From contig OZ219815.1 of assembly GCA_964291235.2 (NCBI GenBank), positions 896,001 through 960,000 on the forward strand: a stretch of DNA of 64,000 nt, written 5' to 3'. The stretch's first letter is position 1; every line of letters begins with the position of its first letter. This stretch comes from Vicinamibacteria bacterium. Its GTDB lineage: Bacteria; Acidobacteriota; Vicinamibacteria; Marinacidobacterales; Marinacidobacteraceae. Positions 35,855 through 60,518 of this stretch are shown piece after piece. The position numbers were made by a program, and so were the translations under genes. Below the pieces are notes generated by a model. The model was not told the DNA's origin and searched no databases. It saw only the letters and a program-made list of their open reading frames with translations.

Positions 35855-36144
35855 CCGGGTTTCTCATACTTCCGGCGCAGAGATCGATGCGGGATGGTTC
35901 TCCTCTCGGCGGGAACCCGACCAGCCTTGATGTCGGACAGGCACGGGAACGCCGGCCTCCAGGCCGGCACAGCCCGCCGTAGGCGGGCGGCGGGACGGAC
36001 CTGGCTGGCCGGGATGGCTCCCTCTCTCGGAGAGGACCCCGTGAGCGCGAGCGGCGAGGAACCGCCCGCGGCGCTACGCGCCGCTGTGCCGGCCCCCACC
36101 GGGAGAACTGGCCTGGAGGTCGGCCCAGTTCTCCCGGTGGGGGC
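35855..36144 (+). repeat. REP-like element copy B plus a mosaic of hairpins
   Basis: Matches 2733-2880; followed by CGCGGCGCTACGCGCCGC (36067-36084) and a 20-bp perfect stem at 36092-36144. Confidence 0.85.
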
Positions 36145-53008: not shown

Positions 53009-53557
53009 GTGCCGAGCGACGTAGCCCGCCACTACGCGCAGGTCCTTTTGGACATCGCGGTCACCGGCGGTGACGACGAAGCCAGCCTCTCGCGGCTGGC
53101 GGCCGGCATCGACGAGTTCGCCGCGGCGCTTGAGCGCTCACCGGAACTCGGCAAGGCGTTGACCTCGCCGGCGATCCCACGGGAGCGGCGGGCCGGGCTG
53201 GCCGGGACCGTGGCCAACCGGATCCTTCCGGACTCACGGCTGGCACAGTTCGTTTCGGTCATGGTGGCGCGGGAACGGTCGGATCACCTCGCGGAAACGG
53301 CGGCGGCGTTCCGGGCGGCGCTCGACAAGCATCGCGGGGTCGTGGAGGCGGAAGTGGTTTCGGCCCGTCCGCTCGACGAACGTGGCCGCGCGAGCCTTCG
53401 AGCGGCACTGGAAGCCGCGTTCTCCGGCACCCCCAGGCTTCGCTTCCGTGAGGATCCGGAGTTGCTGGGTGGGTTCGTCATGCGCATCGGGAACCGGATC
53501 TATGACGCCAGCGTGAGTCGCCAACTTGCCCGCTTTGAAGAGAAATACGGCTCCTAA
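53009..53557 (+). CDS. atpH: ATP synthase F1 delta
   Basis: VARHYAQ.L and DPELLGG..MRIGNRIYDASV motifs. Confidence 0.93.
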   Translation: MPSDVARHYAQVLLDIAVTGGDDEASLSRLAAGIDEFAAALERSPELGKALTSPAIPRERRAGLAGTVANRILPDSRLAQFVSVMVARERSDHLAETAAAFRAALDKHRGVVEAEVVSARPLDERGRASLRAALEAAFSGTPRLRFREDPELLGGFVMRIGNRIYDASVSRQLARFEEKYGS

Positions 53558-53600
53558 TCAACTATAAATCGCCTACAGTCAAAGAGTTACAGGATCAGCA

Positions 53601-55147
53601 ATGAGCATTCGAGCAGACGAAATCGCCGCCCTGCTGCGGGAACAGATCGCCGGCCACGAAACCGGCGTCGATGTCGCGGAAGTTGGAACCGTCGTCTCGT
53701 CGGGGGACGGCATCGCCCGCGTGCACGGCCTCGAAGGAGTCATGTACGGGGAACTCGTGGAACTGCCCCACGATGTTTACGGACTGGCGCTGAACCTGGA
53801 AGAAACGTCCGTGGGGCTCGTGCTCTTCGGCGACGTCACTTCGATCAAGGAGGGCGACACGGCCAAGCGGACCCGGCGGATCCTGCAGGTGCCGGTCGGC
53901 GAGGCGATGAAGGGCCGGGTGGTGGACGCCCTGGGCCGTCCACTCGATGGCAAGGGACCGATCGAGACCAGCGAGGCGGGCGCCGTGGAGCGAATCGCTC
54001 CCGGCATCGTGGCGAGGCAGCCGGTGAAAGAGCCGCTCCAGACCGGCGTCAAGGCGGTGGACGCCATGATCCCCATCGGCCGCGGCCAGCGCGAACTCAT
54101 CATTGGGGACCGCCAGACCGGGAAGACGGCGATCGCGGTGGACGCGATCATCAACCAGCGGGACACGGGAGTCGTCTGCGTTTACGTCGCGGTCGGCCAG
54201 AAACTCTCGACCGTTGCGCAGGTCGTCCGCAACCTTGAAGACCACGGAGCCCTGGACCACACGATCATCGTTTCCGCGTCGGCATCCGAGCCGGCGCCGC
54301 TGCAGTACCTCGCTCCCTACTCCGGATGCGCCATGGGTGAGTTCTTCATGGACAACGGCGGCCACGCCCTCTGCGTCTATGACGATCTCTCCAAGCACGC
54401 CGCTGCTTACCGGGAAATCTCGCTGCTTCTGCGGCGTCCTCCGGGCCGGGAGGCATACCCCGGCGACGTCTTCTATCTCCATTCGCGGCTGCTCGAACGC
54501 GCCGCCAAGCTCTCGGACAAACGCGGGGGCGGCTCGCTCACGGCATTCCCCTTTATCGAGACGCAGGCCGGCGACCTCTCGGCTTACGTTCCGACGAACG
54601 TGATCTCGATCACCGATGGACAGATCTATCTGGAAGGCGATCTGTTCAACGCCGGAATTCGGCCAGCCATCAACGTCGGCAACTCGGTGAGCCGGGTGGG
54701 AGGTTCGGCGCAGATCCGGGCGATGCGCCAGGTCGCCGGAACCATGCGGCTGCAGCTTGCCCAGTACCGGGAGATGGCCGCCTTCGCGCAGTTCGGATCG
54801 GATCTCGACAAGGCCACCCAGGCCCAGTTGGCCAAGGGAGAGCGCCTGACGGAAGTCCTCAAACAGGACCAATACGAGCCGCTGCCCGTCGAAAAGCAGG
54901 TGGCGATCATCTTTGCTGCCAACGAGGGCTTCCTGGACGATCTGGCCCCGGCCGACTGCGGGAGCTTCGAAAAGGGGCTGTACGGTTCCTCGAGAGCCGT
55001 CACCCGGACACGCTCGTCCGGGTTCGCGAAGAGCGAAAGCTGGACGATTCGTTGACGGCCGCGCTCCGTGAGGCGATCGCCGAGTTCAAGCGCGATGCGT
55101 TCCGCGCAGACGCCGCCGTCGAGGCGGGAGAGCCGGTCCCCGCCTAG
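53601..55147 (+). CDS. atpA: ATP synthase F1 alpha; one-base frameshift near 54984
   Basis: GDRQTGKT and [22 protein letters not shown]; the correct C-terminus FLESRHPD...[10 protein letters not shown] continues in another frame to TAG 55147. Confidence 0.95.
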
Positions 55148-55168
55148 GGGCCGGGCCACGGGCCACCC

Positions 55169-57500
<2,332 letters not shown>

Positions 57501-57517
57501 CGGCAGGAGTTTTCCCG

Positions 57518-57943
57518 ATGAGCGACTCCTCCCAGCTTCGGCTCGAGGTCATCACCCCGGGCGGCGTGGTCTTTCGTGACGACGTGGACTATGTGGAGGC
57601 CCCGGCAATCTTCGGTTACATCGGGATCCTTCCCGGTCACGCCCCGCTGCTCTATCAGATACGAAGCGGCCGTCTCCAGTACCGACAGGGTGAAACGGAC
57701 CATTTCCTGGCCGTGCACTGGGGGTTCCTCGAAGTGCTCGACGACACCGTGACGGTGCTTGCGGAAACCGCGGAACGGCCGGAGGACATCGACCTCGCCC
57801 GCGCCGAGGGCGCGCTCGAACGGGCGCAGGCCCGGCTCAAGGAGTTTGGAGCCGCCTACGACGTCGAACAAGCGCAGCAGGCGGTGGCTCGCGCGGAGGC
57901 CCGTCTCCGGGCCGCGGAGGCAGAAGCCAGCTCACAGTCGTAG
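57518..57943 (+). CDS. atpC: ATP synthase F1 epsilon
   Basis: LEVITP, GILPGHAP, GFLEV and IDLARA motifs. Confidence 0.95.
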   Translation: MSDSSQLRLEVITPGGVVFRDDVDYVEAPAIFGYIGILPGHAPLLYQIRSGRLQYRQGETDHFLAVHWGFLEVLDDTVTVLAETAERPEDIDLARAEGALERAQARLKEFGAAYDVEQAQQAVARAEARLRAAEAEASSQS

Positions 57944-57944
57944 A

Positions 57945-58472
57945 ATGGGCCGGATGCGCAACTGGGCTTTCGGCCGCCTGCCGGTCGTGTCCGCCGGACT
58001 CCTGGCCGGTTCGCTGCTTCCGGCCGCGCTCTGGGGTGGAGTCACGGAGCGCCCGCGGTCCGGGGCCGCGCCGCCCAGCGTTGCTCGCGAGACGCCCGCC
58101 GGGACGGCCCCCGCGGCCGACCCGAAGCTCACCCTCCGAGCTCCCCGGCAGTTGTTCCTCCGTCCGCGGATGCCCGGAGAATCGCGGCGGCCGGCGCTCG
58201 ACGTCCGGATCACCGCCCGTATCGAGGATCTGGACACCGCCGAGAATCTGGAGGACTACTACTGTCTGGAAGAAGTCTGGGACTGGGACGACGACACGGA
58301 ATCGGTGTATGAACCCGATTGCGATCCCTATGAGGAAGGCTCGGAGGTCGAGACCTACTTCTTCGGCAGCCACCGCTTCTCGTTGCCCGGCACCTATCGC
58401 GTCTGGTTGCGGCTCCAGCGGAGCGGAGAGACGGTCATCGCGGGCAACGTCACCGTCCGGATCCGCAATTAG
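57945..58472 (+). CDS. Secreted hypothetical protein with a PKD-like domain
   Basis: Signal peptide; YC...WDWDDDT...DC...HRFSLPGTYRV pattern. Confidence 0.7.
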   Translation: MGRMRNWAFGRLPVVSAGLLAGSLLPAALWGGVTERPRSGAAPPSVARETPAGTAPAADPKLTLRAPRQLFLRPRMPGESRRPALDVRITARIEDLDTAENLEDYYCLEEVWDWDDDTESVYEPDCDPYEEGSEVETYFFGSHRFSLPGTYRVWLRLQRSGETVIAGNVTVRIRN

Positions 58473-58475
58473 CGA

Positions 58476-58564
58476 CCCGTGGGGAAAGCGCCCCGCACCG
58501 TTGCCGGGCGGAGTCATGCGACCGGGTCCTGGCTTTTACGCGTGCGGGGCGCTTTCCCCACGGG
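58476..58564. repeat. Perfect 23-bp inverted repeat with a 43-nt loop
   Basis: CCCGTGGGGAAAGCGCCCCGCAC (58476-58498) pairs with GTGCGGGGCGCTTTCCCCACGGG (58542-58564). Confidence 0.9.
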
Positions 58565-58590
58565 ATGATGACGCCCACCCCTCCGCGCTG

Positions 58591-59345
58591 GGCGCCATCG
58601 GTTTTTGTGGGGAGGGGAAACCCCTCCCCACGCCCCTCCCCCGCGGCGCGTTGCGCCGCGAACGGACGCTGGTACGTTCGCCAACAGCCCGCCCGGCATT
58701 CCGCCAGTCCCAAAGGAATGTCAGTAAGAAACTCGTCGAAGCAGCGCCCCGCGCGGTCTCCGGGGAGAGGTGCGACGATCACCCTCGTTTCTTGTGGGGA
58801 GGGGAAACCCCTCCCCACGCCCCTCCCCCGCGGCGCGTTGCGCCGCGAATGGGCACCGGTACGTTCGTCAACAGTCCGCCCGGCATTCCACCGGTCCTAA
58901 GGAATGTCAGTAGGAAACCCGTCGAAGCAGCGCCCCGCGCTGTCTCCGGGGAGAGGTGCGACGATCACCCTCGTTTCTTGTGGGGAGGGGAAACCTCTCC
59001 CCACGCCCCTCCCCCGCGGCGCGTTGCGCCGCGAATGGGCACCGGTACGTTCGTCAACAGTCCGCCCGGCATTCCGCGAGTCCCAAAGGAATGTCAGTAG
59101 GAAACCCGTCGAAGCAGCGCCCCGCGCTGTCTCCGGGGAGAGGTGCGACGATCACCCTCGTTTTCTCCATTCACGGGGCGCTTTTGCCAAGGGGTGCTAA
59201 CACCTTGCATCGCGATCGGCGCCATCGTTTCTCTGGGAGGGGAGACCCCTTCCCGCGCCCCTCGCTCGCGGCGAGTTGCGCCGCGAGCAGACGGTGGTAC
59301 GGTCCGCAACAGTTCGCCCAACATTCCGCCCAACCCAAAGGAGCA
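58591..59345 (+). repeat. Tandem array of ~187-bp multi-hairpin units (3 full, 1 degenerate partial)
   Basis: GTGGGGAGGGGAAACC.CTCCCCAC begins at 58607, 58794 and 58980 (periods 187 and 186); degenerate copy at about 59218-59345. Confidence 0.95.
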
Positions 59346-59350
59346 TCGGT

Positions 59351-59809
59351 ATGAAAACACTTGTGACCTCAATCGTCGTGCTCGGTGTGGTGATGGCGCC
59401 CCTCCACGTCCACGCCGCATCTTGGGTGGTGGCGCCCACCATCCTGGAGGCGGCCGAAGTCGCGGCGGCCAGCGGTGCCTATCGCGCCCAGAACACGGCC
59501 GACATCACCACCGGTCAGATCCGCGAGGGCGACAAGAAGCGGAGCGCCATCGCATTCGCCCTGAGTGGCTTGCTCGCTTTCACCGGCGCAGCACTCTGGC
59601 GCAACTTGACTTGCCGGGGAGAAGGTGACGCACGGCACCTCGGCGAAGGACTCAAGACTCAGGTCGAATGCTACGACGCTGACGGTCAGCGATTGGGATG
59701 GGACACCCCCACAAAAGGCCTCTTTGGGGCCGGCGTCGCGCTCGAACTCGTCTCGCTGGGCTATCTCATCGCCCACATGCGGTCGGACGGCACATCGGAC
59801 GATCAATAG
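59351..59809 (+). CDS. Hypothetical exported/membrane protein, paralog 1
   Basis: AAAGGAG RBS, signal peptide, two hydrophobic helices flanking a Cys-x18-Cys loop. Confidence 0.8.
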   Translation: MKTLVTSIVVLGVVMAPLHVHAASWVVAPTILEAAEVAAASGAYRAQNTADITTGQIREGDKKRSAIAFALSGLLAFTGAALWRNLTCRGEGDARHLGEGLKTQVECYDADGQRLGWDTPTKGLFGAGVALELVSLGYLIAHMRSDGTSDDQ

Positions 59810-59815
59810 CAGGCC

Positions 59816-60000
59816 TAACAGCCTGTGGCAAAACCCCCGCGGCGTTTGAGCGGCGATGCATCCCGTCTGAACCGCGCCTCTACGAGGCGCTCTGCGTTGC
59901 GTTTCGGTCGAAATACACCCGGTATTCCTCCCTCACGCGCCTTGTCACACGGGCGCCTCGCCACTCTCGGCGCTCACGGGGGTTTCACCACAGGCTGTTA
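59816..60000. mobile_element. MITE (non-autonomous, 185 bp)
   Basis: Terminal inverted repeats TAACAGCCTGTGGCAAAACCCCCG and CGGGGGTTTCACCACAGGCTGTTA (22/24 match), TA at both ends, no transposase. Confidence 0.85.
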
Positions 60001-60062
60001 AGTTTCCGCGGACCAGCGGGCCGGTGCCCTCGGTTCTGCCCGCTGGAGGCATACTCCCCGCG

Positions 60063-60518
60063 ATGAAAAAATCTGTCGCGTCCGTCCTGGTGTTCAGCGT
60101 CCTGGTGGCGCCCCTCTACGCGGCCCCACCGGCGGGCGCCACGGCGCGGTCCATTCTGGAGACTGCCGAGGTCGCCGCGGCCAGTGGGGCCTATCGGGCC
60201 CAGAACACCACCACCATCACCACCGGCCGAATTCGGAACGACGACAAGAAGCGGAGCGCCATCGCCTACGGCCTGAGCGGCCTCATGGCGTTCACCGGCG
60301 CTGCGCTGTGGCGGTGGTTGCCGTGCCGAAACATCCCTGACGCGCCAACCAATAACGCCACGGAGAACACCAAGTACGTGAAGTGCTACAACGAGGACGG
60401 CCAGCGGAAGGGACTCGAGACCCCTACCAAGGCCTTGCTGGGGGCCGGGTTCGCGCTCGAACTCGTCTCCCTGGGGTACCTCATCGCCCACCTGACCTCG
60501 GACCGGGACGACCAGTAG
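60063..60518 (+). CDS. Hypothetical exported/membrane protein, paralog 2
   Basis: Shares AEVAAASGAYRAQNT, DKKRSAIA, AFTGAALWR and ALELVSLGYLIAH with paralog 1; Cys-x19-Cys loop. Confidence 0.8.
   Translation: MKKSVASVLVFSVLVAPLYAAPPAGATARSILETAEVAAASGAYRAQNTTTITTGRIRNDDKKRSAIAYGLSGLMAFTGAALWRWLPCRNIPDAPTNNATENTKYVKCYNEDGQRKGLETPTKALLGAGFALELVSLGYLIAHLTSDRDDQ

Follow-up and report, generated by a model that had tools for sequence, protein, structure and literature searches.

The window analysed here is a stretch of 64,000 nucleotides from a Vicinamibacteria bacterium of the family Marinacidobacteraceae, and this text deals with a tandem array of structured units at positions 58476..59345, together with the dispersed element from which the array appears to be built. 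The genes atpH-A-G-D-C occupy 53009-57943, with atpG and atpD supported by Pfam matches. They are followed on the + strand by an open reading frame (ORF) of 175 amino acids (57945..58472; stop codon TAG at 58470-58472), which was recognised by gene calling and by tblastn orthologs in the genus and has no Pfam or NCBIfam match. Behind the array, an ORF of 152 amino acids (59351..59809, + strand), preceded by AAGGAG at 59338-59343, is present in 16/16 genomes of the genus and matches no known family. With a probability of roughly 80%, the array between these two ORFs arose when a non-autonomous transposon specific to the genus and its family, a miniature inverted-repeat transposable element (MITE), was amplified locally into head-to-tail copies.

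The repeat anatomy agrees with the initial annotation, which had described tandem structured units of about 187 nt. Tandem Repeats Finder reports an array at 58601-59163 with a period of 186, 3.0 copies, 94% matches and a score of 1014, and in a repeat search the starts of successive units lie 187 and 186 nt apart. Identity of unit 2 amounts to 97% with unit 3, to 92% with unit 1, and to 78% with a fourth copy over the first 108 nt of the latter. This fourth copy (59174-59356) aligns with 58545-58731 at 76% and reaches the start codon of the next gene. A perfect 23-bp inverted repeat (58476-58498 and 58542-58564, with 43 nt between the arms) precedes the units, and a decayed arm, 81% complementary to 58469-58495, lies at 59174-59200, both as first described. 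The absence of a conserved reading frame was likewise borne out, as 187 is not divisible by 3 and the codon-usage gene caller places no gene between 58472 and 59363. An ORF running through the array (58036..59100) was rejected as non-coding by the same caller. A test for clustered regularly interspaced short palindromic repeats was negative, in line with the earlier view, since whole units are 92-97% identical and therefore lack unique spacers.

The first, full-length mosaic copy of the element (58473..58710, + strand) was delimited by alignments with copies from the own genome and the genus, and it corresponds to an nhmmer match at C1:954444-954679 with 179.9 bits. It begins with the left terminal repeat, continues through a loop, an inverted arm, palindromes HP2 and HP3, a C-rich linker and palindrome HP4, and closes with a right terminal repeat that has decayed. 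The sequence of the left arm, which is the left terminal inverted repeat (CCCGTGGGGAAAGCGCCCCGCAC, 58476..58498, + strand), occurs exactly or near-exactly at 38 places in the genome. Its inverted internal copy (58542..58564, + strand) forms with it a perfect 23-bp stem around a 43-nt loop, referred to as hairpin 1. The HP2 palindrome (GATGACGCCCA...TGGGCGCCATC), followed by GGTTTTTG, was read from the sequence at 58567..58599 (+ strand). HP3 (GTGGGGAGGGGAAACCCCTCCCCAC, 58607..58631, + strand) was recognised from inverted-repeat pairs and recurs at 58794-58818 and 58980-59004, while HP4 (CGCGGCGC gtt GCGCCGCG, 58642..58660, + strand) is found in every unit and is paired in 98.8% of cells across 65 copies of the element.

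The recently amplified core (58595..59163, + strand) comprises three units of 187 or 186 nt, at 58595-58781, 58782-58967 and 58968-59154 and following. Each unit carries HP3, the linker, HP4, a remnant of the right terminal repeat, a copy of the 5' untranslated region (5'UTR) of the downstream gene, and the left arm in decayed form followed by a portion of the loop. The copied ribosome-site region has a dead start codon (AAAGGAATGTCAGTAAG, compared with AAAGGAGCATCGGTATG at 59337-59353); alignments place it at 58711..58732 (+ strand), and it recurs in units 2 and 3. A fourth, diverged full-length copy (59104..59350, + strand; 84.5 bits) starts with a decayed left arm at 59104-59127, has its decayed inverted arm at 59174-59200, and continues through HP2', HP3', HP4' and a terminal-repeat remnant into the live 5'UTR. 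A separate feature of the units is found on the - strand, where HP3 and the linker hold four runs of at least four G per unit (GGGGGAGGGGCGTGGGGAGGGG; 58621-58642, 58808-58829 and 58994-59015). This G-quadruplex-type motif competes with hairpin HP3, and in unit 3 one of the G-runs is interrupted by a C-to-T change on the + strand.

The initial annotation had also raised the possibility of an assembly artefact, in other words a repeat collapsed or expanded during assembly, which is highly improbable. Short-read contigs from four coded runs of two studies were compared over 58200-59600; these runs may include the source sample and are therefore not independent. Contigs match unit-specific stretches with 0 differences at 58633-58785, 58820-58971, 59006-59158 and 59134-59481, and the last two of these, together with a further stretch at 58947-59035, cross unit borders. 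The unit-specific contigs come from three coded runs of one study, and X5, from the second study, matched other stretches only. In favour of an artefact, the short-read contigs break within the array and none covers it as a whole. Against this stand the 17 columns at which the three units differ, the reproduction of unit-specific stretches in the three runs, and the assembly of the genome in 2 contigs. One contig has an odd joint leading from 58978 back to 58547, with 9 extra letters and 6-8 mismatches on each side, and looks like another locus or organism.

Dispersal and target sites of the element

The repeated unit is built from a sequence that is scattered over the genome (3.45 Mb, 2 contigs, 68% GC). 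With unit 2 as a query, 22 own-genome matches were obtained, of which those away from the array locus cover just the first ~65-75 nt; the full 187-nt unit occurs at the array locus only. With the whole region as a query, a block of 200 nt (58469-58669), comprising the 23-bp hairpin that precedes the array and the first third of a unit, matches about 15 further loci of the own genome. In relatives, the element extends ~45 nt further and ends in GTTTCACCACAGGCTG, which is the inverse of its first 16-20 nt. The full element is ~245 nt long, is bounded by terminal inverted repeats of the form (G/A)CAGCCYGTGG(nn)AAA, and has the same order of parts as the first copy of the array, with a variable loop of ~45 nt, the linker ACCCCACCCC after HP3, HP4 in the form CGCGGCGCnnnGCGCCGCG, and a right terminal repeat that in the first copy of the window has decayed to CGCCAACAGCCCGCC.

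Matches to the element were found in 14/15 other genomes of the genus, in 2/9 genomes from other genera of the family, and in 0/16 from other families of the order. Relatives carry many copies, for example 35-37 among the matches listed in G001 and in G013, and the matching public contigs are titled as Candidatus Marinacidobacterium, Vicinamibacteria and Acidobacteria metagenome-assembled genomes. Clustering is not confined to the window. A second array, at C2:473783-474315, consists of three head-to-tail elements that recur about every 176 nt and lack the right terminal repeat at their junctions, and in relatives several pairs of matches are spaced 178-303 nt from start to start. The units form a cluster of an intergenic repeat that is dispersed and rich in palindromes, and they are not a locus-specific RNA.

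The terminal repeats connect this element to a larger group. The motif CAGCCYGTGGnnAA, with at most one mismatch, has 221 matches in the own genome compared with 57 in a reversed-genome control, and 66 inverted pairs of it lie less than 400 nt apart, with a modal length near 178 nt (25 pairs). These pairs enclose several inner sequences that are unrelated to each other. Their flanks read YTAR on both sides (CTAG/CTAG in 11, CTAG/CTAA in 7 and TTAA/TTAA in 6 of the 66 pairs), a pattern that fits duplication of TA by an element with purine and pyrimidine termini. A target duplication of 3 or 4 bp was rejected, as the left and right flanks frequently have nothing but the central TA in common at the junction, as in the 7/66 pairs with CTAG/CTAA, whose last bases are unlike.

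The superfamily that shares CAGCCYGTGG ends and YTAR flanks is thus represented at 66 own-genome sites, for example at C1:124772-124950, 386780-386958 and 622126-622304, and besides the modal 178 nt it includes lengths of about 40, 62, 75, 96, 112, 196 and 232 nt. In this way, a rich and previously unannotated MITE superfamily is documented in an uncultivated acidobacterial genus. A family model would mask dozens of intergenic sites per genome and would explain ORF calls such as 58036..59100.

Comparison of filled and empty sites confirms the duplication of TA. At C2:1132163, the filled site reads T-TA-[element]-TA-AGCTC, while 14 genomes with an empty site read ..CATT-TA-AGCTC.. or close variants, with flanks 4-15 nt apart. 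The site at C1:693290 contains the element in the own genome and in three relatives (TA-[element]-TA-GATGTTG) and is empty in 12 genomes (GCC-TA-GATGTTG). In the empty genomes, TAG on the other strand is the stop codon of an adjoining gene for 373 amino acids; in the filled ones, the stop codon is composed of TA and the first G of the element. Such sites are clean cases of insertion into the TA of a stop codon with the stop regenerated.

Association with stop codons is frequent in the superfamily. Relative to the gene calls (codon-usage caller, 2,627 genes, 86% coding), 32 of 70 distances between MITE ends and gene 3' ends equal 1, which means that the stop codon is formed by the three bases abutting the terminal repeat. 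About half of the superfamily ends adjoin a stop codon. Among the mosaic copies, a co-oriented gene lies on the left-arm side in 10/15, with the gene end at most 12 nt from the arm in 9 of those 10, and a converging gene lies on the right side in 5/15. The element is a non-autonomous TA-type MITE specific to the genus and its family. It inserts at the TA of YTAR sites and duplicates this TA, and its purine first base would rebuild TAA or TAG after insertion into a stop codon. Copies probably accumulate behind genes because YTAR sites are scarce at 68% GC with short spacers and because insertions into stop codons are tolerated. As far as the accessible parts of the MITE literature found here extend, targeting of stop codons is not stressed in them, and it could still be in print.

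The array locus in relatives and the origin of the units

In 10/15 other genomes of the genus, the two flanking ORFs are separated by 38-69 nt without any element. A single decayed copy is present behind the stop codon in G001 (183 nt), G013 (117 nt) and G004, the last of which carries an additional, different MITE at a TA located 24 nt after the right-hand TA of the first element. G015 carries the other MITE at this locus, a different element of 280 nt with the same ends and TA-containing flanks; G007 reads CAA at this site, which makes the two genomes a third filled and empty comparison in support of the TA duplication. The locus was not resolved in G006. The ORFs of the own genome are 881 nt apart. 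This distance is made up of the full copy (58473-58710), the 22-nt copy of the ribosome site with its dead start, two short copies, and the diverged full copy, at whose end lie the live AAGGAG and ATG. The outer two copies are 69-76% alike and the three young units 92-97%.

The composition of the unit is informative about how the array arose. The unit includes the host 5'UTR, although a transposing element would copy only itself; in effect, the element has dragged a host 5'UTR into a tandem array within an operon. The junctions of the young units fall in a TCGTTT(C)T repeat that is present in the loop of the last copy and before HP3. Roughly the same segment, consisting of the inverted arm and HP2, is missing from the short inner units and from the single copies in G001 and G004. 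This may reflect one shared deletion or repeated loss of the hairpin; the alignment fits both, because the loop and the flank of HP2 resemble each other.

A course of events consistent with these data can be proposed. One copy would have inserted behind the stop codon of the gene next to atpC, at a time before the own lineage separated from three sister species. In the own lineage alone, an older duplication of the element with the adjoining 5'UTR of the next gene would have come first, followed by a recent triplication of the 187-nt segment that spans two copies. Replication slippage or template switching at the short TCGTTT repeat, possibly favoured by the hairpins and the G-quadruplex-type tract, and then unequal homologous recombination may have produced the units. 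The array might also influence expression, for instance if the transcript that crosses a 40-nt gap in relatives were attenuated or processed here. Overall, the array is best explained by local amplification of a MITE from a new TA-type family, which is selfish DNA of a well-known kind and probably not a new RNA gene. A striking structured array is thereby explained by selfish DNA and local duplication, and a false RNA-gene lead is avoided.

Junctions, mobilising enzyme and strand bias

Several observations weigh against this origin from an amplified MITE, and they concern the junctions, the enzyme and the palindromes. A further insertion, at C1:979050, is filled in the own genome only and empty in 14 (G002 unresolved), and its right junction is ambiguous between a TA duplication with an adjacent 20-nt loss and an 8-nt duplication; this site was omitted as duplication evidence. 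At the array itself, the left junction is TAG-CGACCC, as opposed to TGA-CAGCCC in both G001 and G004, and the ancestral TA is presumed. The mechanism of the tandem duplication is likewise deduced and not observed.

No autonomous element with matching terminal repeats was found, in a search that was restricted to DDE_3 among transposase families. The own genome contains no inverted terminal-repeat pair 0.7-3 kb apart around a gene, and its four pairs of more than 400 nt correspond to the C2:473755 array and to chance. DDE_3 (IS630-type) has 0 matches in the own genome and occurs in 6/16 genomes of the genus. At 12 examined IS630-type loci, the MITE repeat serves as the own end of the insertion sequence (IS) in none; IS ends were recovered in 4 of them (TACATAGCGCC.., GTGTGGTGTCCCGCAAAT.. 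and GTGTCGTGTCA). The inspected IS630-type copies in G004, G013 and G001 have other terminal repeats, yet they lie in a YTAR TA by MITE ends, and that of G001 adjoins one such end. The borders of the MITE act as landing sites for further TA-targeting elements. Two loci, L119 (G004:C1:121344-124778) and L128 (G013:C4:666125-669565), contain IS630-type elements exactly in the TA of TTAA/CTAG between back-to-back MITE ends.

An IS630/Tc1-mariner-type transposase is therefore presumed, on the basis of the TA duplication and of precedent. Among known bacterial MITEs are some of less than 200 bp that have terminal repeats, carry TA at their termini and duplicate their target (PMC2229807), and the RUP element is thought to be mobilised by IS630-Spn1 at TA sites (PMC2229807, PMC3049150).

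The palindromes were compared in a set of 65 copies. The own genome supplied 14 of these; the other 51 belong to relatives and were picked by an exact HP3-linker pattern, and HP3 is thus invariant by choice. The four palindromes pair in 92.4% of cells, compared with 39-61% with slid partners. Changes on both sides were found in 26/57 stem pairs, compared with 13.3 in shuffles, and HP2 contributes 11/13. These both-side changes indicate that the palindromes are maintained. The initial annotation had proposed a structure-selected element, a view that applies in part to the family and goes beyond what the array itself displays. Three recent copies cannot show covariation.

Pairing is also one-sided. 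On the + strand, the non-Watson-Crick cells comprise 161 A.C and 26 G.U, and the - strand is the more stable one in 62/65 copies with RNA parameters and in 63/65 with DNA parameters. A plain cut-and-paste MITE does not predict both-side changes together with a strand bias, and this leaves room for a strand-specific role as RNA or single-stranded DNA (ssDNA). The two arms of hairpin 1 differ, with GTGGTGAAA, the consensus of the terminal repeat, in the outer arm and CTTTCCCCAC in the inner one, an asymmetry that may reflect an outer arm held to the terminal-repeat consensus. In addition, G-rich strands in general fold better. These two points account for part of the bias and leave the remainder unexplained. 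Read-through from a neighbouring gene reaches the + strand more frequently (10/15 compared with 5/15), so selection for a hairpin in read-through RNA does not account for this remainder.

It is doubtful, though conceivable, that the active strand is the G-rich - strand, which pairs consistently better and has the four-run G tract in every copy, in the form of an ssDNA intermediate or of an antisense or convergent transcript, that copies at stop codons have been co-opted as 3'-end or insulator cassettes, and that the four-unit array works as a copy-number-variable read-through valve. If so, such a valve would sit between the atp operon and two small membrane-protein paralogs. These tandem paralogs (59351-59809 and 60063-60518) encode a protein of ~150 amino acids of no known family, with a hydrophobic N-terminal leader apparent by eye, and they are present as a pair or more in 16/16 genomes of the genus, directly after the atp operon and the 175-aa ORF.

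Structured RNA, REP-type clusters and known repeat families

The initial annotation had suggested an undescribed multicopy structured RNA. According to such a reading, the copies would be functional RNA genes or domains, either stabiliser or terminator cassettes of the 3' untranslated region or antisense RNAs, kept for their fold, and the array would supply several doses. The fold of the unit is indeed far more stable than that of shuffles, and the stems originally listed are present in it. Its minimum free energy is -93.7 kcal/mol for the + strand, where z equals -5.07; the corresponding values for the - strand are -96.2 and -3.63. The pairing and both-side changes across the 65 copies, the one-sided wobble with the more stable - strand, and the location of most copies directly behind a co-oriented gene point in the same direction, as does a T-rich tract after HP2 (GGTTTTTG in the window; TCTTTC in most copies). 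A precedent is provided by the pneumococcal SPRITE, a terminator-like repeat found near 3' ends (PMC3049150).

Other results make a structured RNA unlikely. An Rfam 15 scan of 57500-60500 with permissive E-values yielded no family at E < 0.5; the best matches, mir-431 (24 bits, gathering 70, E 0.56) and ar14 (20.5 bits, gathering 58.8, E 0.62), are at chance level. A promoter and terminator consensus scan of 58300-59500 gave 0 promoter-like and 0 terminator-like sites, the latter being limited to loops of 3-8 nt, for which HP2 would not qualify. The copies are insertion polymorphisms with TA duplications, identical terminal repeats bound unrelated inner sequences, and the borders of the unit are set by the 5'UTR duplication. 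The strand with the better fold is reached by read-through in fewer cases (converging 5/15, co-oriented 10/15), and the inner units have no partner arm for hairpin 1 and no HP2, so that the fold is not kept within the array. Maintenance of palindromes is also predicted by transposase-bound repeats and by DNA hairpins.

The variation among the three young units was compared with the consensus fold. Of their 17 variable columns, 12 are unpaired in the consensus fold, though 34% of all columns are unpaired overall. In the 5 paired variable columns, pairing is kept in all three units at 1/5, through G-U. The original statement that differences fall mostly in loops therefore stands, whereas conservation of pairing through G-U applies to one column.

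A second proposal, a REP/BIME-type (REPIN) cluster spread as ssDNA by the REP-associated tyrosine transposase (RAYT) of the genome, is still less probable. The own genome encodes a single RAYT (C1:16193-16924, 243 amino acids), identified by NF047646 with 92 bits (cut-off 80) and by Pfam Y1_Tnp; its best solved relative is 4er8 TnpArep. The search for RAYT genes covered the own genome. Hairpin 1, with two inverted 23-nt arms and a 43-nt spacer, resembles a REP doublet and occurs alone at several sites, and the one-sided, G.T-compatible mismatches would suit a single-strand substrate. The RAYT gene is itself flanked by tandem arrays, so that repeat arrays belong to this system in the genome, but on both sides these consist of a different repeat family, with a unit of 120/121 nt that does not contain the CCCGTGG arm. 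REPs are not known to have terminal inverted repeats and target duplications, and the present elements have both. The REP/BIME-like cluster suggested in the initial annotation thus comes close, but its attribution to a RAYT-type REP gives way to that of a MITE. As a separate observation, the RAYT flanks (G000:C1:15737-17618; L021 640-2521) form inverted tandem arrays of the hairpin unit, with 3.3 copies upstream and 5.1 copies downstream.

The amplified MITE that is favoured here has parallels among known repeats. It resembles Correia/NEMIS of Neisseria, ERIC/RU-1 of enterobacteria and RUP of S. pneumoniae, which are small and non-coding, have terminal inverted repeats and TA duplication, occur in many dispersed intergenic copies with filled and empty polymorphism, and form long stem-loops if transcribed (PMC2229807). 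Unlike these families, with which it has no sequence relation, the present element is a mosaic of ~245 nt with a third, internal arm, three extra palindromes and a G-quadruplex-type tract. It also differs from them in that no partner transposase was found in the searches described above, in that about half of the family ends abut a stop codon, and in its tandem array that incorporates a host 5'UTR at the window locus.

BOX of S. pneumoniae (boxA-boxB(n)-boxC) may be comparable as a modular dispersed repeat with an inner part in variable tandem number and an RNA fold, but its repeated module is a part of the element at many loci (PMC3049150; sequences not compared). The 187-nt unit, by contrast, spans two copies and a host 5'UTR and is found at the array locus only. 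With REP, BIME and REPIN elements, the family shares GC-rich imperfect palindromes, inverted pairs, intergenic clusters and a RAYT in the genome; it departs from them in its terminal inverted repeats and TA duplication, and in the other repeat family that flanks the RAYT. The MIRU of mycobacteria are intercistronic tandem units of 40-100 bp that are not known to derive from a transposon bounded by terminal inverted repeats, as the 187-nt unit does. Like the array, they lie between co-directional genes of a GC-rich genome and touch the stop and start of their neighbours. Variation in copy number is a candidate property of the array.

Some further repeats were noted in the course of the analysis. 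Directly after the stop codon of the 152-aa gene, at 59810-59850, CTAACAGCCTGTGGCAAAACCCCCGCGG represents another left end of the MITE superfamily. Besides the strand bias in pairing and the preference for stop codons, two other repeats that are abundant in the own genome merit closer attention. The 16-mer CCACCGGGAGAACTGG, usually found after CCC, occurs at about 190 own-genome places with at most 2 mismatches, roughly 120 of them exact, on both strands; in the window it lies at about 36096-36140 and 44332 (G000:C1:932096, 932125 and 940332). An exact 18-mer scan of public genomes for this repeat returned at least 143 loci, and among 80 matches listed nearly all belong to metagenome-assembled genomes of this acidobacterial group. 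The 16-mer could be a nested mini-insertion or a protein-binding site, and it is found within several repeat families, in the HP2 and HP4 loops of some mosaic copies, in direct doublets and in inverted pairs.

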